From a virus (Duplodnaviria > Caudoviricetes), in the IMG/VR virus record IMGVR_UViG_3300028887_000085, positions 47,111 to 111,110 of that record: 64,000 nt of DNA. The stretch is one strand, 5' to 3'. A program made the translations under genes and the position numbers. The notes beneath the pieces are model-generated. The model was given only the letters and a program-made list of their open reading frames with translations, did no database searches and was not told the DNA's origin. Positions 1 to 7,088 of this stretch are shown here, one piece after another. Each line of letters begins with the position of its first letter. Position 1 is the stretch's first letter.

Positions 1-609
1 GAGCTCAGAGAGAACTGGAATGGATACGGGTGCTGCGCGTGGTACGACGAAGAAAAGAGCGAAGAGTATATCCGACAAGTCACGACGCTGCTGAGGACGC
101 TGCCTTTCGATATCACGTTCATCGCTCCGCTCCAAGACGGGACCATCGTACAAATCGAATACGAAGATGAGGTATGGTACATCGAATTCGAGCTGAACGA
201 AGACCATACGGCGAGCGTATACGAACAGCTTCCGGACAAAGATCGAGAATACACCTGTTACTGGTGGCAGATCGCGGACCTGCTGCGAGACGGCGGGACA
301 CTCAAAGAGAAAGGAGAAAGTGAAATGGTGAAAGGGCAGCAGGAACGAATGATGTACTGCTTCGGGATCGCCATCGAACTGGTTAAGCGCGGAGAAAGAA
401 TGCGGCGGGAAGGATGGAACGGGAAGCGCCAGTATATCGAACTGGCGACCTGCATCTCCTACAAGAACGCCAAAGGCGAGATCGTGAACGCGGAGCACGA
501 CGCCATAGGGAACGCGGCCATCGCTTTCGTGGGAACATCCGGGGTCCAGCTCGGATGGCTGGCATCTCAGGCGGACATGCTGGCGGAAGACTGGGAGATA
601 TTCGAGTGA
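1..609 (+). CDS. DUF2829/Tad2-like (Thoeris anti-defence 2) domain at 325-609; frame is open from base 1, so possibly an N-terminal fusion truncated by the window
   Basis: FGxAIExVKRG..RxGWNGK and GWLASQADMLAEDW motifs typical of DUF2829; AAAGGAG RBS before ATG 325; no stop in frame 1 from 1 to 324. Confidence 0.75.
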   Translation, partial: ELRENWNGYGCCAWYDEEKSEEYIRQVTTLLRTLPFDITFIAPLQDGTIVQIEYEDEVWYIEFELNEDHTASVYEQLPDKDREYTCYWWQIADLLRDGGTLKEKGESEMVKGQQERMMYCFGIAIELVKRGERMRREGWNGKRQYIELATCISYKNAKGEIVNAEHDAIGNAAIAFVGTSGVQLGWLASQADMLAEDWEIFE

Positions 610-923
610 ACACTATCTGCCTCCGCAACTGCCAGTTCCGAACGCGTACGGGATACTGCGGACGGACGGCGGGGTGCATAGACGATATCAAAGCCTCCGA
701 AACCGTTTCGACATGGACGGCAAACACTTCCAAGATGCCGAAGCTGAAGAAGTGTCCGTTCTGCGGAAGTAAATACAGCCTGAAGGTGGTATCGCATCCG
801 CAAGAAGGATTCAGGGATCGTTACTCGATCCTGTGCGATTACCGCGAAGGCGGCTGCGGCGCTGAGGGGCCGTGGTATCACAGACCGGAAGAAGCGGCGT
901 GGGCGTGGAATCAAAGAACATGA
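606..923 (+). CDS. Lar-like restriction alleviation / zinc-ribbon protein
   Basis: LKKCPFCG...C..GGCGAEGP...AAWAWNQR signature; GTG overlaps the upstream stop. Confidence 0.65.
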   Translation: MNTICLRNCQFRTRTGYCGRTAGCIDDIKASETVSTWTANTSKMPKLKKCPFCGSKYSLKVVSHPQEGFRDRYSILCDYREGGCGAEGPWYHRPEEAAWAWNQRT

Positions 924-935
924 AAGGAGAACACA

Positions 936-1724
936 ATGGAGTACAAGTACAACGTCGGTGACAAGGTGCGCATCCTGGACGGAAGCAAAATCCTTGACTA
1001 TACGGCGGGCTGGACAAAAGGAATGAATTCGCTTGTCGGAGAGGTGAGGAAAATCACCGGGCGCACAGCATATGACGAACGCCCGCACTATTTCCTCGAT
1101 GGACCTGATGCTTTGGGATATAAGTGGGACGAGCGCGGCCTTAAGCTCGTCGAAACGAAGAAGAGCAAACCCCGGATTGTGGTCTACATCGACAAGAACG
1201 ACTCCAGCGTAGTCGTCGCAAAGGATACGGAGACCGGGAAGACCGGGAAAGCAAAGTGCAGCCAGGAAGACACCTTCGACTTCTACACCGGCGCACAGCT
1301 GGCGATGATGCGGCTGTTTGATACGAAGCCCTTCCCGGAGGAGCCGAAGAAGTGGATTCCGAAAGATGGAGATTACGTCATCGGCAACGAAAAGAACGGT
1401 TACGCTTTCACCTCGGGAGGAACGATTTGGAAAATTGCAGCTGTATGCGGCAGGTCAATCACAGTTTCATCTCCAAATAGCAACGTGAAATACCCTGTTG
1501 ATTGCGACTTCTTCGACCATTACACCGGACCGCTCTTCACCGGCGATATGGTTTGCGTTAAAGATGACGGAACCGCGTTTCCAAAGTATGTCAAAGGAAG
1601 GATTTACCATGTGAAAGAAGGGGGAATTGAAGGAGAAGTCAGTCACAACGGTTACATCACTTCCGTCGAAGCTCTGAATGCCGAGTACAAAGACCGGTAC
1701 AAATTCCTGGAAATCGTAAAGTGA
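936..1724 (+). CDS. Phage hypothetical protein (SH3-like repeats plus AKCSxEDxFDFxTGA domain)
   Basis: GAAAGGAG RBS; KYNVGDKVRI start; 262 aa. Confidence 0.65.
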   Translation: MEYKYNVGDKVRILDGSKILDYTAGWTKGMNSLVGEVRKITGRTAYDERPHYFLDGPDALGYKWDERGLKLVETKKSKPRIVVYIDKNDSSVVVAKDTETGKTGKAKCSQEDTFDFYTGAQLAMMRLFDTKPFPEEPKKWIPKDGDYVIGNEKNGYAFTSGGTIWKIAAVCGRSITVSSPNSNVKYPVDCDFFDHYTGPLFTGDMVCVKDDGTAFPKYVKGRIYHVKEGGIEGEVSHNGYITSVEALNAEYKDRYKFLEIVK

Positions 1725-1851
1725 CAGGGGGTGATGCCTGTGTATACCAATCCGGCGTTCCCTTTGGAGTAGAAATGCCCGCTCTCCGTGCGTGAGCGGC
1801 GAGCGGGCGTGGGGTCTTCGGCATGACCTCCTTGGATAGAGAGAAGCGCAT

Positions 1852-1917
1852 GGGTCGCGTAGCGCTGTGCCGACGCAAGCGGCATCCGTGGGGTGGAGAT
1901 CCCTCACGACGCGACTC
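1852..1917 (+). ncRNA. Minimal tRNA-like element (acceptor-like stem plus T-arm-like hairpin)
   Basis: GGGTCGCGT/ACGCGACTC closing stem; GTGGGG-TGGAGAT-CCCTCAC hairpin just before the 3' strand. Confidence 0.4.
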
Positions 1918-1924
1918 TTTATAA

Positions 1925-2007
1925 GGGGCGGTAAGCTCAGGGAAGAGCAGGGGACGATTTCCCCGGCGTACAGAGATACGCAGCCGGTTCGACTCCGGCC
2001 CGCCTCA
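1925..2007 (+). tRNA. Atypical tRNA-like gene (possible GAT anticodon, long variable arm)
   Basis: GGGGCGG/CCGCCTC acceptor, GCTC/GAGC D stem, GGGG-ACGATTT-CCCC anticodon arm, GCGTA/TACGC variable arm, GCCGG-TTCGACT-CCGGC T arm. Confidence 0.55.
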
Positions 2008-2117
2008 GCCGCGTATGCCTCCTTTCAGCTAGAGAAGCGCCGGACCGTGATGGCGCTGCGCCGGAGCAGCATCGGCGTCCGTCCCGTGAAGAGCCGGGGC
2101 GAAGCGGTCCATTATAC

Positions 2118-2193
2118 GCGGGTGTAGCCAAGCGGTGAAGGCATGGGACTTTGACTTCCATATTCGCTGGTTCAAATCCAGCCACCCGTGCCA
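2118..2193 (+). tRNA. tRNA-Gln(TTG) with encoded CCA
   Basis: GCGGGTG/CACCCGT acceptor; TGGGA-CTTTGAC-TTCCA anticodon arm; GCTGG-TTCAAAT-CCAGC T arm. Confidence 0.92.
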
Positions 2194-2236
2194 CCCCACA
2201 GAGGGGATATCAGAAACGGAAAGGAGAGAAACCAAA

Positions 2237-2587
2237 ATGGAAAAGAGCATATTGGAGATGGCGCGTGGTGCGATCACGGAGCGCGTTGACTATGAGATGG
2301 GACGGGTGCTCCAGAACATCCTCGACCCCAACACCAAGGCCACGGCAAAGCGGAAGATTACGCTTACGGTGGAGTTCACGCCTGACGACGAGCGCCAGAC
2401 CATCGACGTGAGCGTTACGGCGAAGAGCGTATTGCAGCCGACGGTTCCCGTGAAGACGGCGCTGTACGCGAGCATGGGCAGCTTCGGCGACTTCGCGGTG
2501 GTGGAGATGACCCCGCAGATCCCCGGACAGACATCACTGGACGGCGACGAGCAGGAGCCCGCGCCGATCCTCAGAATTGCGAAATAA
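2237..2587 (+). CDS. Conserved phage protein, small partner of a DUF2303-like gene (YfdP-like position)
   Basis: GA..ERVD.E..RVL.NILDPNT....KRKITLT motif; AAGGAG RBS. Confidence 0.55.
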   Translation: MEKSILEMARGAITERVDYEMGRVLQNILDPNTKATAKRKITLTVEFTPDDERQTIDVSVTAKSVLQPTVPVKTALYASMGSFGDFAVVEMTPQIPGQTSLDGDEQEPAPILRIAK

Positions 2588-2600
2588 AAGGAGGCACACG

Positions 2601-3317
2601 ATGATGCTGAAAGAAGCAATCGAAAAGATCGAAGAAATGAGCAGCCCTATGGTCTATACGGAGGACGATCATTCCTACGTTCTTTACGCAGATCACACCG
2701 AGGAACTGCGTCCTGCCATCGACTCTCCGGATACGGTGAGGATCAACAGCTTGGACGCTTTGGTGCAGCTCGTGAAGAAAGAGCAGCAGGACCGTCAGAT
2801 TTTCGTCTCCGTCACCGGCCACGACGAGGTTGACGTATATGACTCCCCCAGTGAAGACTCCAGATGGAAGCGGAACGTCCTGTATAACGCCAGAGCCATT
2901 GACATCCCCGGCTGGGAGCCGGAGGTGCAGATGGGATTCGACCAGGCAGCCGTGGCGCTGATGACCCGCTTCCAGGACGGCGGCGACCGCGAGTATACGC
3001 TCCAGCTCCTGAGCCAGATTACCACCGGTGCGAAGGTGACGTACACGGACAACGGCGTGGCAAGCACCATCGTGACGCAGAAAGGCGCGGCGCTGGCGCA
3101 GAACACGACGATCAAGCCGCTGGTCAAGCTCCGCCCCTACCGCACCTTCCAGGAGATCGAGCAGCCTGAGGGCATCTTCCTTATCCGTATATCCGAGCGC
3201 GGAATCACGTTCCGGGAAGCGGACGGCGGCATGTGGAAGCTGACCGCCAGGAACACCGCAAAGGCTTGGCTTCAGGAGCAGCTTCAGGACATGCCGAACG
3301 TAACCGTGATGCTGTAA
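2601..3317 (+). CDS. DUF2303/YfdQ-like phage protein
   Basis: LRPYRTFxEIEQP...F..R...EADGGMW motif; GGAGG RBS; family call is tentative. Confidence 0.55.
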   Translation: MMLKEAIEKIEEMSSPMVYTEDDHSYVLYADHTEELRPAIDSPDTVRINSLDALVQLVKKEQQDRQIFVSVTGHDEVDVYDSPSEDSRWKRNVLYNARAIDIPGWEPEVQMGFDQAAVALMTRFQDGGDREYTLQLLSQITTGAKVTYTDNGVASTIVTQKGAALAQNTTIKPLVKLRPYRTFQEIEQPEGIFLIRISERGITFREADGGMWKLTARNTAKAWLQEQLQDMPNVTVML

Positions 3318-3351
3318 GACATCGCTGACTGCCGGGAATAGACCGGCACCA

Positions 3352-3422
3352 TGCCGGACGAGGACGAGCGCAAGCCACAGGAGCGATACGCTGCAAGGGT
3401 TCGATTCCCTGGTCCGGCACCA
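3352..3422 (+). ncRNA. tRNA-like element with acceptor stem, T arm and CCA but no recognisable D/anticodon arms
   Basis: TGCCGGAC/GTCCGGCA-CCA; AGGG-TTCGATT-CCCT. Confidence 0.55.
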
Positions 3423-3690
3423 GAGGTTCCGCAAGGTATAAGAGCCGGGGATAAGTCCTCTCCCCGGACGGTGGGCAAACCGTGATTAAACCCGTTTTTT
3501 CTCCCTCCTCTGACAAGGGGGCCTCCCGGATGACTCGGACACGCCGGGGTAAAAGGAAAGAGCCGGGTGCGCATGGGGCTACAGGGAACGCTCAGAAACC
3601 ATGCAAGAAAAGTGAGCGCCGGAGGGTGTGTCTCCTGACCACACGACAATCGGAATAGACCGATGGACAGCCCGGAGAGACGGGCATTAT

Positions 3691-3812
3691 GCCGGGGTAG
3701 CTCAGTAGGTAGAGCGCCTGCCCGATGAAGGTGGAGCTGTCACCGTTCGATTCGGTGAGCGTTTAACACGCGATGGAGCCTTGCGTGGGTTCGAGTCCCA
3801 CCCCCGGCACAA
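3691..3812 (+). ncRNA. Expanded tRNA-like RNA (~120 nt) containing a second internal T-loop hairpin
   Basis: GCCGGGG/CCCCGGC acceptor, canonical TAGCTCAGTAGGTAGAGC D arm, terminal GTGGG-TTCGAGT-CCCAC, internal TCACCG-TTCGATT-CGGTGA. Confidence 0.6.
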
Positions 3813-4149
3813 ACCCCGCAAGCGGCGGAGGAAGCGCGAGAAGCTGGATTCGTGTCTGCTATCCGGATAGCGGCGGCTTGTTAAGCCGTGAAACGCACGA
3901 GGGTCGGTGATAAGGCCAAGCGCGGCGGGGTGCAACGTCGGCAAGCAGGGGACATTAAATCCCTAGGCTACAGCGAGCGACGGGGACGTTCCTCGGTTCG
4001 CAAAAGTGGTGCAGGACCACACCGACGATAGCACCGGCAGACGTGCCGCCCGTGCGAGTCGGGCGCGAGGAGAGCGATAGATCGGCAGAAGATAAGTCCG
4101 AAGTTTGCGGGGAACGCCGATTCCTTTGCCCCGCAGTTCGGCACAATGG

Positions 4150-4236
4150 AGTCCACGCGGGACGGTCCCGCGAAGGTGTGCGAGAGTGGTTCGAGTCCGC
4201 TTGTCTCCTGGTTCGACTCCGGGGGGCGCATGGACT
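4150..4236 (+). ncRNA. Structured element with two tandem T-loop hairpins
   Basis: AGTCCA/TGGACT closing stem; AGTGG-TTCGAGT-CCGCT and CTCCTGG-TTCGACT-CCGGGGG. Confidence 0.5.
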
Positions 4237-4262
4237 GCAATATCACCTTCCTCCATTTTTAC

Positions 4263-4336
4263 GCGGGTGTAGTTCAGAGGTAGAACACCAGCCTTCCAAG
4301 CTGGGAGCGCCGGTTCAAATCCGGTCACTCGCTCCA
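4263..4336 (+). tRNA. tRNA-Gly(TCC) with encoded CCA
   Basis: GCGGGTG/CACTCGC acceptor; CCAGC-CTTCCAA-GCTGG anticodon arm; GCCGG-TTCAAAT-CCGGT T arm. Confidence 0.93.
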
Positions 4337-4658
4337 CGCCCGATTAGCTTCATCTATACAAAGCGTCCATAAAGAAGGACGGGATGAAGACGGGCTTCCC
4401 CGTTCGACGGCGTACAACGACGGCGGGTGATGAATAGTGGCTGGCACCGGCCTGAGAATAGAAACGGATGCCACCCATGCGCGGGGGCAGGGCTGAAATG
4501 TTCCGTGGTGGAGAGGTCGTCCGAATCCGGCAAGCTCTGAGGGATATCGGAATGCGGAGAGGCAACGACGGGCAACGAATACGTGCGACCCGTGCGTGAG
4601 TAAGAGAACTGCCGGACGGGCGACCGATCCATTGTGTCGCAAAGGAGAGAAGAATCCA

Positions 4659-4880
4659 GTGGCAAAGAAATCAGCGCTTCCGGCGCTTGAACCGTGCCCC
4701 GTCTGCGGGCGCGACGGTCAATCGAAAGACGTGATGCAGCCTTTCTCCCACGGTTGGGTCGGCTGCAAGGAATGCCAGAAGATCATCTACTGGACGGGAA
4801 AAGGAAAACGGACGGCAGTTGACGCCTGGAACATAGGAGCAAGGAGAGAAGCAAATGGGAACCGGAAATATTCAACCTGA
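4659..4880 (+). CDS. Lar-like zinc-finger protein
   Basis: LEPCPVCG...CKEC...AVDAWN; AAAGGAG RBS before GTG. Confidence 0.55.
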   Translation: MAKKSALPALEPCPVCGRDGQSKDVMQPFSHGWVGCKECQKIIYWTGKGKRTAVDAWNIGARREANGNRKYST

Positions 4881-5226
4881 AATCCAAGTCTTTGACAACG
4901 ACCCGTTCGCAATGGTGTGGCAGGCGTACCGCAACCTTTATCCCGGTAGGCCGTGCCCGTCCGTCGAATGGTGCCATATCGACGATGCCGACCCTGAGAC
5001 CGGAAAAGCATGGGGATACACCGTATTCACCGACGACGGAGAGATCGCCGTTTTCGTCTCATGCGACATCAAGGTGCAGGACGCCGTGGAGATACTGGCT
5101 CATGAGCTGGCGCACGTCGCCGTCGGCGCGGAGGAAGATCACGGTGAGAAGTGGGAAGCGGCGTTTGAGGCAATCTTCCAGGAATACAACCGGATCGGAG
5201 CGGAGCTGGCCGATGAAGAAGTGTGA
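4855..5226 (+). CDS. SprT/zincin-like HExxH protein
   Basis: ILAHELAHVAVG...HGEKW. Confidence 0.65.
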   Translation: MGTGNIQPEIQVFDNDPFAMVWQAYRNLYPGRPCPSVEWCHIDDADPETGKAWGYTVFTDDGEIAVFVSCDIKVQDAVEILAHELAHVAVGAEEDHGEKWEAAFEAIFQEYNRIGAELADEEV

Positions 5227-5491
5227 ATTCTGCCAAGGGGACGGATTCATCGAAGACGAATACGGCGAGTGGAAGCTGGAAGCGATGAGGATAGTTCCGC
5301 TTTCACCGCAGTCCCCATATTGGGCGCTCTTCATGAAGTATCTAGACGAGGACTTCACGGCAGGAGAAAAAGCCAGCTTCCCCATCAAGTTCTGCCCCAT
5401 GTGCGGGATGAGCCTGAGCGAGAACAAAGTCAACGTCCTGATGAACGCAGAAGAGATGGCGACCGCGCTGAGAAGGAGAAAAACAAAATGA
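5213..5491 (+). CDS. Small zinc-binding phage protein
   Basis: CEFC ... IKFCPMCG; translationally coupled. Confidence 0.6.
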   Translation: MKKCEFCQGDGFIEDEYGEWKLEAMRIVPLSPQSPYWALFMKYLDEDFTAGEKASFPIKFCPMCGMSLSENKVNVLMNAEEMATALRRRKTK

Positions 5492-5853
5492 GCGGCTTAT
5501 ACATCAAGGGGATGAAGATGCCGGAGCCTGGAACGGTGCTGGATGTCAAAGTGTATAGCGATGGTCTTGTGACCGTGTGGGACAAAAAGATTGGGTGGCT
5601 ACATCATCATGCCATCCCCATCCCCGATGTGGTGGAGCGGCCCAGGTGGATTCCCGTGAAGGAGCGGTTGCCGGATGCCTACGAGGACGTGCTGCTTCAG
5701 TTCCCGAATAATCAGGCGGCGGGATTCTGCGACAGAGACGGCTGCTGGGGCGTTTATTCCGGTGACGGGTTCTATACCGAAGTTGCCAACAACGAGCCGA
5801 AACCTACGCATTGGATGAAGAAACTGCCGGAGCCGCCAAAGGAGGAAACATGA
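5488..5853 (+). CDS. DUF551-family phage protein
   Basis: WIPVKERLP ... THWMKKLPEPPKEE. Confidence 0.7.
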   Translation: MSGLYIKGMKMPEPGTVLDVKVYSDGLVTVWDKKIGWLHHHAIPIPDVVERPRWIPVKERLPDAYEDVLLQFPNNQAAGFCDRDGCWGVYSGDGFYTEVANNEPKPTHWMKKLPEPPKEET

Positions 5854-6212
5854 GCGTACTGATTAAGGGCATGGAGATGCCTGTCATCGAACTTGAGTGG
5901 ACAATACGGCACGGCGCTGACGGAAAATGGTACGCCATAGATACCAACGCCGAAACAACGGACGGAGAATGGCACGAAATCGTCCCCGTCCCGCCGCATG
6001 GGGATTTGATAGAACGCGACGCTGCCTATGACAAAATCGCGGAGCGGGAGGATCATATCGACTACTGCACTGAATGCGAGCACATCCGGCTTGTCCGTGG
6101 GGTTCCTTACTGCGGCATCAGCGGGAAACTCCTGCACCCCATGATGTATACGCCGATTGAGGGCGGCGGCAGCGGACCGGCACGGAACTGTGAGAAGCGG
6201 AGGAATACCTAG
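5850..6212 (+). CDS. Phage hypothetical protein
   Basis: MSVLIKGMEMP...VPPHGDLI; GGAGG RBS. Confidence 0.6.
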   Translation: MSVLIKGMEMPVIELEWTIRHGADGKWYAIDTNAETTDGEWHEIVPVPPHGDLIERDAAYDKIAEREDHIDYCTECEHIRLVRGVPYCGISGKLLHPMMYTPIEGGGSGPARNCEKRRNT

Positions 6213-6213
6213 A

Positions 6214-7088
6214 ATGGCAATCATCACTTTCAAGGACGCGGACGGCGCGGAGCAGACTCTGGATACGGCGCAGAAGTTCAATACGGCGTATCACGCGGAT
6301 TGCCTTGAAGTCCTCCGTGCGATGCCAGATCAGTGCATCGACCTGATCGTGGCAGATCCCCCGTATGGGAGCGGCCTTACGGAAAACGGCGGATGTCAAG
6401 GGTGGTTTTCCAAATATCATCAAGACAGCACTGAGCACCGCAATCTGCGTGGCCGCTTCGACAAATACAACGACAGTTCACAAACTGTTAATGTAGAGAG
6501 AGAGAGAGAGAGAGAAGCGCACCGGCGTACAACAGGTTCGGAAGTCCGGGAAGCAGATTTGAGAAGTACAAGCGTATCCCGGACGGGCGGGACACGGGCG
6601 GAGAAGTACGGAAAAAAATCATAGCGTGGGACGTGGCACCTGGAAAAGAAGTCTTCGACGAGCTTTTCCGCGTCTCACGCGAGCAGATCATATGGGGCGG
6701 AAACTACTTTGAACTTCCACCGACGCGCTGTTTCCTGATCTGGAGAAAGCTGACAATCAGTGAAAGCTTCACGATGGCGATGGCTGAATACGCCTGGACC
6801 AGCTTCAACGCGAACGCCAAGGTATTTGAATGCGCACCGCAGGGGAAGCCGGGCGACGATCGCTTCCATCCAACACAAAAGCCGATAGACCTTTATCGCT
6901 GGATATACGGGCTGTTTGCGAAGCCTGGTATGACGGTCTTCGACCCTTTCCTCGGAAGCGGAAGCAGCCGCATAGCGGCGTATGAAGCGGGACTAAACTT
7001 CATCGGCTGCGAGATCGACCCGGTGTATTTTCGGAAACAGGAAGAGCGCTTCGAGCGCATGACGGATAACTACAGCATGTTCGACTAG
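6214..7088 (+). CDS. Amino (N6/N4) DNA methyltransferase split across reading frames (6214-6624 frame 1; catalytic remainder in frame 3)
   Basis: DPPY in the first ORF; IIWGGNYF, HPTQKP, DPFLGSGS in the second; (AG)10 at 6495-6514 and A7 at 6612-6618 lie at the frame changes. Confidence 0.85.
6495..6514 (+). repeat. (AG)10 simple sequence repeat inside the methyltransferase gene
   Basis: Counted directly; encodes ...VERERERE. Confidence 0.95.

Follow-up and report, generated by a model that had tools for sequence, protein, structure and literature searches.

A conserved RNA of about 300 nt and an array of tRNA-like units in a gene-free region of a phage genome

We analyzed a gene-free region within a 64,000-nt stretch of phage DNA (the window), which corresponds to bases 47111-111110 of IMG/VR record IMGVR_UViG_3300028887_000085, a genome of 111,110 bp that is complete according to CheckV. 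We found that the 3′ part of this region, positions 4337-4640 of the + strand, is a member of a large and strongly constrained family of RNAs of ~300-345 nt, here called R, carried by phages with likely Oscillospiraceae hosts. The window copy is 304 nt long, and its first base directly follows the CCA of a tRNA-Gly. The region as a whole is not one 1.3-kb RNA; it is a mosaic, with tRNA-like units and folded modules (A, B, M and R) following each other in turn. The original prediction for this DNA had proposed either an array of tRNA mimics released from a processed polycistronic RNA or an undescribed large RNA. The first of these fits the anatomy of the region, while the second holds for 4337-4640 only, where the RNA is ~300 nt long, widespread and absent from Rfam, and fails for the full 1.3 kb.

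The R RNA family

A 75-nt stretch of R (4435-4509) also matches an unrelated human-gut phage (GenBank MT835520.1). A core word from the stretch common to both, CAGGGCTGAAANGTTCCGTGG, occurs exactly in at least 120 IMG/VR contigs and in five genomes of the GTDB species set, four of which are labelled Oscillospiraceae, Oscillibacter or Eubacteriales. The core pattern AACGGAU...AGGGCUGAAAAGUUCCGUGG, with its 21-nt word, is shared family-wide. A covariance model, R1 (142 positions, 29 pairs), was built on 39 diverse members; it recovered 99 full-length copies of R, exactly one per locus, with scores of 88-154 bits. The window copy scored 103.1 bits (E-value 1e-24) over all 142 positions, with helices P5 and P6 and the UGUG that follows P5 as in the rest of the family; it deviates in helix P(d), where a U-A pair is U-U. 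The phages that carry R have several genome sizes and come from gut and rumen. R was present in 3 of 151 sampled genomes of the host family, and in the three host metagenome-assembled genome (MAG) contigs examined it lies among small open reading frames (ORFs), directly upstream of terminase- and portal-sized ORFs. Its rarity in host genomes and these phage-like surroundings indicate that R is most likely a phage RNA and not a host housekeeping RNA.

The elements of R were placed as follows:

4337-4397, + strand: H1, a variable 5′ domain with at least four unrelated versions in the family
about 4398-4427, + strand: hairpin H2, with a conserved loop of GYRYRAA type, followed by an A/U-rich linker
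4439-4452, + strand: hairpin P(a), GGCUG-GCAC-CGGCC (family form GGCUG-GNNC-CGGCY)
4464-4468 and 4502-4506, + strand: P(b) of a three-way junction, ACGGA paired with UCCGU
within the three-way junction, + strand: P(c), UGCG-A-CCG...CGG-CGCA, and P(d), GCU-GAAA-AGU, with a tetraloop
4488-4508, + strand: invariant core word CAGGGCUGAAAUGUUCCGUGG, from exact-word scans of IMG/VR and the GTDB set
4509-4532 and 4610-4632, + strand: closing helix P5, 20 bp in the window, then UGUG
4556-4604, + strand: inner helix P6, with a 2-nt bulge
3′ of P5 to the end of R at 4640, + strand: tail UGUGUCGCAAA; the family tail begins YUGUG

The proposed fold is well supported by comparison. In the 39-sequence alignment 96.8% of cells were paired and 10 of the 29 pairs changed on both sides; none of 500 shuffles reached these values on any measure, and slid controls paired at 37-50%. 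P5 ranged from 11 to 29 bp with at least 11 unrelated sequence versions, beginning directly after CCGUGG and always ending just 5′ of a UGU(G/A) tail, usually UGUG, and it encloses a conserved GAGGCG, the box GGNGWGGY, P6 and GWGUAR. P6 with its 2-nt bulge took the same fold in most of 31 distinct sequences. The fold is also strand-specific, since its conserved G-U and U-G pairs would become A-C mismatches if read from the opposite strand. The multi-branch block that the original prediction had noticed at 4337-4622 is thus real and conserved.

P(b) and P(d) were invariant in the 39-member set, in part because its members had been collected by the 21-mer. A member found without the 21-mer (L215) keeps GGGCUGAAAAGUUCCGUGG and compensates a change in P(c). 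When a scan was forced to accept only a non-G at the G of UUCCGUGG, a single IMG/VR contig was returned (L219, 7623-7662), which reads UUCCAUGG; its AACGGAU is unchanged, so the change in P(b) is uncompensated. Together, these two observations indicate that the junction is constrained in sequence and not just in pairing, as would be expected of a binding or active site.

Two further interactions could be drawn from the sequences of the loops. In types A and B (L087, 4340-4420, and others) the H1 loop carries CCACGGAA, or CCGUGGAA / CACGGA, which is complementary to UUCCGUGG. Pairing between the two would compete with P(b) and could represent an alternative pairing or a switch; types C and D, which include the window copy, are without this complement. 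The H2 loop (~4410-4417) always holds a YRYR word (UACG, UGCA, CGCA or UACA), which could pair with the 3′-terminal UGUG (4633-4636; UGUAC in the L113 group) to form a pseudoknot closing R.

Known RNA families and the junction of R with tRNAs

A search of the whole window against Rfam 15 (4227 families) at gathering scores returned only tRNA. At E ≤ 10 no non-tRNA family was found on 1800-5000, and none on 4334-4660 with the laxest filters; a type-B member of the family (L087) likewise matched no Rfam family. GOLLD, ROOL, YrlA and ribozymes of the theta or hepatitis delta virus (HDV)-like kind, which had been suggested as candidates for the region, were therefore not borne out by the Rfam covariance models. 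As the identity of R, we rejected GOLLD, ROOL, HEARO, OLE, raiA and others for lack of a covariance-model match, and RNase P RNA, transfer-messenger RNA (tmRNA) and T-box are excluded as far as the Rfam models can see. YrlA and the bacterial Y RNAs gave no Rfam match, although a Ro (Rsr) gene was not searched for. Hatchet, twister, pistol, hammerhead and HDV-like ribozymes had no model match to R at E ≤ 10. R shows a T-box likeness in GGCUGGNNCCGG/GGCUGGNACCGG, but whereas in a T-box the N of the UGGN bulge covaries with the tRNA discriminator, here the N is, by eye, untied to the discriminator of the upstream tRNA, the window having UGGC with discriminator U. Other likenesses noticed by eye to RNase P RNA, the lysine riboswitch and the T-box (AGGGCUGAAA, GAGGCG, GAGUAA, GGCUGGNACCGG) were dropped, as they had no model support and occurred in the wrong order. 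The core sequence was not found in papers or in the supplements searched (for PMC8040213, the first 200 of 408 supplement files), and the literature on noncoding RNAs of tRNA arrays held nothing matching R. It may nevertheless be present without a name in some bulk catalogue.

Phage tRNA clusters have long been known to hold extra stable RNAs of no assigned function. The species 1 and 2 RNAs of T4 (rnaC, rnaD) and the tRNA-like stable RNAs of T5 are noncoding and lie in phage tRNA clusters, on the same strand; they are ~120-140 nt long, belong to phages of Enterobacteria and are thought to be cut from a shared precursor by tRNA-processing enzymes. R occurs in the same setting and has no sequence or structure relation to them, being ~300-345 nt long with a three-way-junction core and two long domains. 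GOLLD and ROOL are large, conserved, multi-domain RNAs of Bacillota phages and prophages, often beside tRNAs, whose function is not known (PMC5737381; 10.1101/2024.12.08.627333). R is similarly ornate and tRNA-adjacent, whereas it is about half the size of ROOL and matches neither model at E ≤ 10. R thus appears to be a third, unrelated and apparently uncatalogued family beside GOLLD and ROOL in phage tRNA surroundings, marked by its length, its presence in gut and rumen phage contigs, a core held more tightly than pairing needs and a precise tRNA-CCA junction. It bears on how phages make RNAs by way of tRNA-processing enzymes, on whether tRNA shells are handles or decoys, and on the roles of large phage RNAs.

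The junction was examined across the family. On the 5′ side of the core, ARAGORN calls tRNAs whose ends lie 145-178 nt from it and which have at least seven identities (Gly, Met, Trp, Ser, Thr and others); on the 3′ side, other calls begin at a distance of 150-212 nt, and all are on the strand of R. A T-arm-type hairpin with an acceptor strand stands at the start of R in 68 of 89 distinct upstream contexts. A T-arm hairpin was present somewhere in 88 contexts, and of these 62 had the tail CCA and 6 had CAA. In phages without a nearby decoding tRNA, a non-decoding look-alike (T*, described below) stands 5′ of R. One lineage (L102 and L111) has, ~1.6 kb upstream of R, a row of eight ARAGORN tRNAs (Cys, Pro, Thr, Gly, Gln, Ser, Leu, Met) that ends at R, and in other lineages R occurs without any decoding tRNA.

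Since R starts at the nucleotide after CCA in most contexts, it could itself be a self-cleaving, tRNA-maturing ribozyme that cuts its own 5′ end after CCA, with a theta-like function in a new and larger fold. The usual 3′ enzymes have difficulty with a CCA set against a helix, and the core is conserved beyond pairing needs, with the one uncompensated IMG/VR variant at the G of UUCCGUGG. Theta ribozymes offer a precedent beside phage tRNAs: they are minimal HDV-like double pseudoknots within a few nt of the 3′ ends of gut-phage tRNAs, of which 4.5% have CCA, and ~90% of the predicted hosts are Bacteroidota (PMC10879173). R resembles them in its position, which is no more than 5 nt from the 3′ end of a phage tRNA. 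However, it shows no HDV-like match or topology, its tRNAs mostly have an encoded CCA, and it occurs in Oscillospiraceae MAGs. There is no HDV-type double pseudoknot at the supposed cleavage site; the first nucleotides form an ordinary hairpin domain, H1, which differs between subtypes to the point of unrelated sequence, and the invariant core lies 130-170 nt away. Given also that no known-ribozyme model matched at E ≤ 10, we regard a ribozyme as very unlikely.

tRNA-like units and modules of the array

The gap extends from the TAA of a 246-aa gene (3315-3317) to the GTG (4660) of a gene for a Lar-like zinc-ribbon protein. Its ORFs are at most 124 aa long and overlap the RNA genes, and ten of them tested against Pfam gave no match at E ≤ 0.1. 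Compared with its closest relatives, L002 (IMGVR_UViG_2236876025_000020) and L003 (IMGVR_UViG_3300031998_000040), the gap shows indels of 1, 2, 14 and 17 nt, and entire blocks have been replaced. No reading frame would survive such changes, which indicates that the gap is noncoding, in agreement with the earlier claim that 3318-4659 holds no credible ORF. The parts of the array 5′ of R are listed below and, like R, all lie on the + strand:

3331-3352, + strand: leader hairpin GCCGGGAAUAGACCGGC followed by ACCAU, found by reading the sequence, conserved in L002 and L003 and directly 5′ of unit 1
3353-3422, + strand: unit 1, with a 7-bp acceptor, canonical T arm AGGG-UUCGAUU-CCCU, discriminator A and encoded CCA, without D and anticodon arms
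3423-3690, + strand: module A, 268 nt, conserved in the closest relatives only
3691-3809, + strand: unit 2, with acceptor, D and T arms intact and 3′ end A-CAA, from Rfam tRNA and alignment
3813-3931, + strand: module B, closed by ACCCCGC (3813-3819) and GCGGGGU (3925-3931) and holding AUAAGGCCAAG
3936-4028, + strand: unit T*, with acceptor CGUCGG/CCGACG, conserved ACAGCGAGCGACGGGGAC and an unusual T-arm loop, UGCAGGA
4029-4149, + strand: module M, ~120 nt, with hairpin GCCCG-UGCGAGU-CGGGC (4050-4066) and AGAUAAGUCCG
4150-4236, + strand: unit 3, with AGUCCA/UGGACU as its outer stem, one hairpin of 7 bp and two T-arm hairpins enclosed by an inner stem, found by reading the sequence
4263-4336, + strand: tRNA-Gly(UCC), canonical, with encoded CCA at 4334-4336 (ARAGORN; Rfam, 71.3 bits)

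The tRNA-Gly, which the original prediction had also recognized as canonical, is the sole ARAGORN call within the gap. That prediction had described remodelled units at 3352, 3691 and 4150; all three are tRNA-shaped, but only the one at 3691-3809 passes the Rfam gathering score. This is unit 2, which scored 47.9 bits against a gathering score of 29 for tRNA (RF00005), with model positions 1-71 matched. Its anticodon arm is replaced by a 56-nt insert with a second T-arm-like hairpin; it has no 5-bp anticodon stem with a 7-nt loop and drew no ARAGORN call, and does not qualify as a decoding tRNA. The insert is wholly different in L003 and L002, with the shell retained. Directly 5′ of unit 2 is a hairpin (3670-3685) similar to the leader hairpin, in which one C-G to G-C change in relatives is compensatory. 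The sole Rfam signal of unit 1 was to tRNA-Sec (18.5 bits, E-value 3.3). Unit 1 is 100% identical in L003, and its site in L002 is taken instead by a 150-nt unit that scores as Rfam tRNA (36.6 bits). The T-arm hairpins of unit 3 are AGUGG-UUCGAGU-CCGCU and CCUGG-UUCGACU-CCGGG; this unit is 100% identical in L003 and 75.5% in L002, where the outer stem and first hairpin change in a compensatory manner. The window copy of unit 3 had no Rfam match, and the L003 copy had a stray 17-bit match to cyano_tmRNA. A hairpin previously singled out as T-loop-like, GTGG-TGCAGGA-CCAC, turned out to be the T arm of a fourth tRNA-shaped unit, T* (3936-4028). Another 14 loci carry T*. There its ACCA end directly adjoins the 5′ side of R, and its acceptor covaries (GCGGCAU/AUGCCGC versus ACGGCAU/AUGCCGU).

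These units may be read as anti-defence elements: non-decoding tRNA look-alikes, perhaps together with R, that would act as decoys or inhibitors of tRNA-targeting nucleases or of immune sensors. Phage tRNAs can counter tRNA-cleaving defences. The four units keep the acceptor and the T-arm elbow and replace the anticodon arm, which is what anticodon nucleases cut, and among close relatives the anticodon-arm position is the fastest to change, unit 2 having an overall identity of 53-62% to L003 and L002 versus 93-100% for the surrounding sequence. In addition, Lar-like and DNA methylase genes are neighbours in the window. On the other hand, the same units occur in phages with structural-gene neighbours, and a turnover of cassettes is equally expected of neutral processing handles. 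An anti-defence neighbourhood does not appear to be a family trait, since the ~40-kb relatives carry R ahead of terminase and portal genes. As the explanation of the array, we find this reading hard to favour and give it a slim chance only; it is compatible with the one that we prefer (below), not opposed to it.

The modules between the units differ in how widely they are conserved. Module A is 96.3-96.6% identical in L003 and L002, more than the adjacent gene (92.8-94.9%) and the gene preceding that one (~80%); it has no Rfam match and no match in the other ~120 loci. Module B has an identity of 97.5% to its L003 counterpart and of 79% to that of L002, where a hairpin of 17 nt is deleted. Exact 22-nt words of modules A and B matched in two close relatives only. 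Module M is 79% identical in L002 and absent from L003, and its hairpin shows a compensatory change in L002 (CCCG/CGGG to CCUG/CAGG). Many phages have another module, S, 3′ of R (L087, 4700-4790, and at least 24 other loci), consisting of a hairpin and GGGUAAAGUCUGCUAUGUAAGGCCAAGGGGYGGGGGCUGGUAGCAAA and ending just 5′ of the Shine-Dalgarno (SD) site of the first gene of the packaging region. Its helix UGCUAU/GGUAGCA covaries (UGUUAC/GUGACA in one variant), and S is without an Rfam match. Judged by eye, module B may tentatively be taken as an expanded relative of S.

The energy of folding does not set the region apart. Minimum free energy (MFE) z-scores against dinucleotide shuffles were -0.12 for 3420-3690, -1.63 for 3810-4150 and -2.46 for 4337-4660, so that the nearly continuous pairing reported earlier does not exceed chance in these three large blocks. 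At 60% G+C such a density of pairing is expected, and the case for RNA comes from comparison, not from energy. The comparison also indicates how the array changes. The 3′ domain of R could not be aligned with that of L002 or L003. The replacements in L002 and L003, together with a contig of run X22 (guessed to be RNA) in which 3319 is joined to 4028 via 755 other letters, suggest that units and modules are exchangeable cassettes in a conserved frame. All sampled words of the region occurred together in a single run, from a bovine gut metagenome, and partial holders of its words were gut samples from bovine, goat and other animals.

Alternatively, the region could be debris, made of tRNA pseudogenes and recombination scars, or R could be a DNA site (attP, cos or pac) with a tRNA 3′ fragment. 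The chimeric build of the units (double T arms, D and anticodon arms missing), the mosaic arrays and the non-significant MFE of module A would be expected of debris, and 30 loci have integrase genes at ~1.6 kb upstream of R. However, R has been retained, with compensatory changes and G-U pairs specific to one strand, in phage lineages unrelated to each other. Its core is all but invariant, and the stems of T* and unit 3 are also kept by compensatory changes. We rejected attP or a prophage edge specifically, as the three host MAG contigs place R inside phage-like gene clusters and not at a host junction. Debris or a DNA site is, in our judgment, extremely unlikely.

Proposed processing of the array, possible roles of R and neighbouring genes

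We propose, with modest confidence in the scheme as a whole, that the gap is an array of genes for stable RNAs, transcribed together from the + strand of a 111-kb rumen phage. Its tRNA-shaped members would be one tRNA that decodes, the tRNA-Gly, and four look-alikes that do not decode but retain the acceptor and the T arm. Most likely, judging by analogy, these units punctuate the transcript. Cuts would be made by host RNase P at the 5′ end of each unit and by tRNA 3′-end machinery at or after the (C)CA, and each module would thereby be released as a discrete, structure-protected RNA. In mitochondrial tRNA punctuation, the t-elements of plant mitochondria and the mascRNA of MALAT1, tRNA-shaped signals recruit RNase P and RNase Z and so set the ends of neighbouring RNAs. 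We infer the same role for units 1, 2, 3 and T*, with the difference that those systems are eukaryotic or organellar and these units belong to phages. R would be a folded RNA acting in trans through its invariant core, to which a partner would bind, be it a protein, a tRNA or a second R molecule. In this role it would resemble the stable RNAs of the T4 and T5 tRNA clusters as well as GOLLD and ROOL. Among the roles considered for R, a trans-acting RNA with a partner bound at the junction is the most likely; a cis-acting leader, a tRNA-maturing ribozyme and anti-defence tRNA shells rank next, and debris or a DNA site is disfavoured.

Evidence on transcription is limited. A consensus scan of window positions 1-7000, a kind of scan that provides weak evidence, found no promoter-like or terminator-like site on the + strand, which fits read-through transcription with the flanking + strand genes. 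Contigs from RNA libraries (X20, X21, X24 and X22) include relatives of 3410-3933 in three runs from two studies.

Several observations weigh against this scheme. The RNA-library contigs leave 4420-5400, and with it R, uncovered; they also cover the flanking gene, and DNA carry-over is possible. In 20 of the 89 upstream contexts, the T-arm hairpin lies elsewhere and does not abut R. Relatives of modules A and M are limited to L002, L003 and L109 and their fold is not significant, so it is conservation that speaks for A and M as RNA genes. No universal protein neighbour of R emerged when ORFs within ±6 kb were clustered across 121 loci; the top clusters were integrase, HU, helix-turn-helix, terminase and portal proteins. 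CCA is inhibitory to RNase Z, and R would hold up exonucleases. An encoded CCA abutting a helix may thus be an awkward substrate, and the cut between tRNA and R may need another activity or fail.

The sequences downstream of R bear on a role in cis. When 103 distinct downstream contexts were sorted into rough regular-expression classes, a tRNA came next in 19, the S module in 24 and other sequence in 23, and an SD-like site with a start codon lay within 60 nt of R in up to 37, some of them misclassified. R, together with S, might be a leader of the downstream late or packaging operon that acts by processive antitermination or as a stabilizer of the transcript, comparable to put of HK022 or EAR of Bacillus. 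Small ORFs and ORFs that match, or have the size of, terminase large subunit and portal genes follow R directly in the ~40-kb relatives and the host MAG contigs, and in the window the SD of the Lar-like gene (AAGGAGAG) directly follows the tail of R. Nevertheless, those contexts in which a tRNA gene comes next, including L002 and L003 with tRNA-Gln, are not what a leader would predict; the downstream genes vary by lineage (Lar-like here, terminase elsewhere), and R has no terminator/anti-terminator alternative and leaves the SD free. Moreover, the known antitermination RNAs are far smaller than the ~300-nt, multi-domain R. We consider a cis-acting leader quite unlikely. We also searched five host genomes for an antisense target of the core; its reverse complement, with up to three mismatches, matched only R itself.

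More speculatively, R may be a new class of large functional RNA, specific to phages with likely Oscillospiraceae hosts, whose junction is an active or a binding site. It would then be either a ribozyme that matures, or acts in some other way on, the tRNA joined to its 5′ end, or else a scaffold comparable to ROOL and GOLLD that binds tRNA or assembles with itself, and the tRNA shells would be working parts of the system and more than punctuation. We regard this as unlikely, and as secondary to the trans-acting, partner-binding R released by processing that we favour.

The genes around the array were also inspected. The upstream 246-aa protein belongs to no Pfam family and has 208 relatives, mostly on viral contigs of 25-50 kb (L004-L081 among them). 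No tRNAs were found in any of 26 more distant loci of this protein that were scanned (53-64% identity), and model R1 found no R in the 11 of them to which it was applied, which indicates that the 246-aa gene is not tied to the RNA array. Genes for Lar-like (restriction-alleviation) zinc-ribbon proteins at 414-923 and 4660-4880 flank the RNA regions on both sides, and further downstream come genes for an SprT-like and a DUF551 protein and two for DNA methylases. Another small RNA cluster (1924-2007 and 2118-2193) is located 1.1 kb upstream. It contains a tRNA-like unit with a long variable arm, which scored 30.2 bits with Rfam tRNA-Sec (gathering score 47) and was not called by ARAGORN, and a tRNA-Gln(UUG); in L002 and L003, tRNA-Gln sits after R instead.

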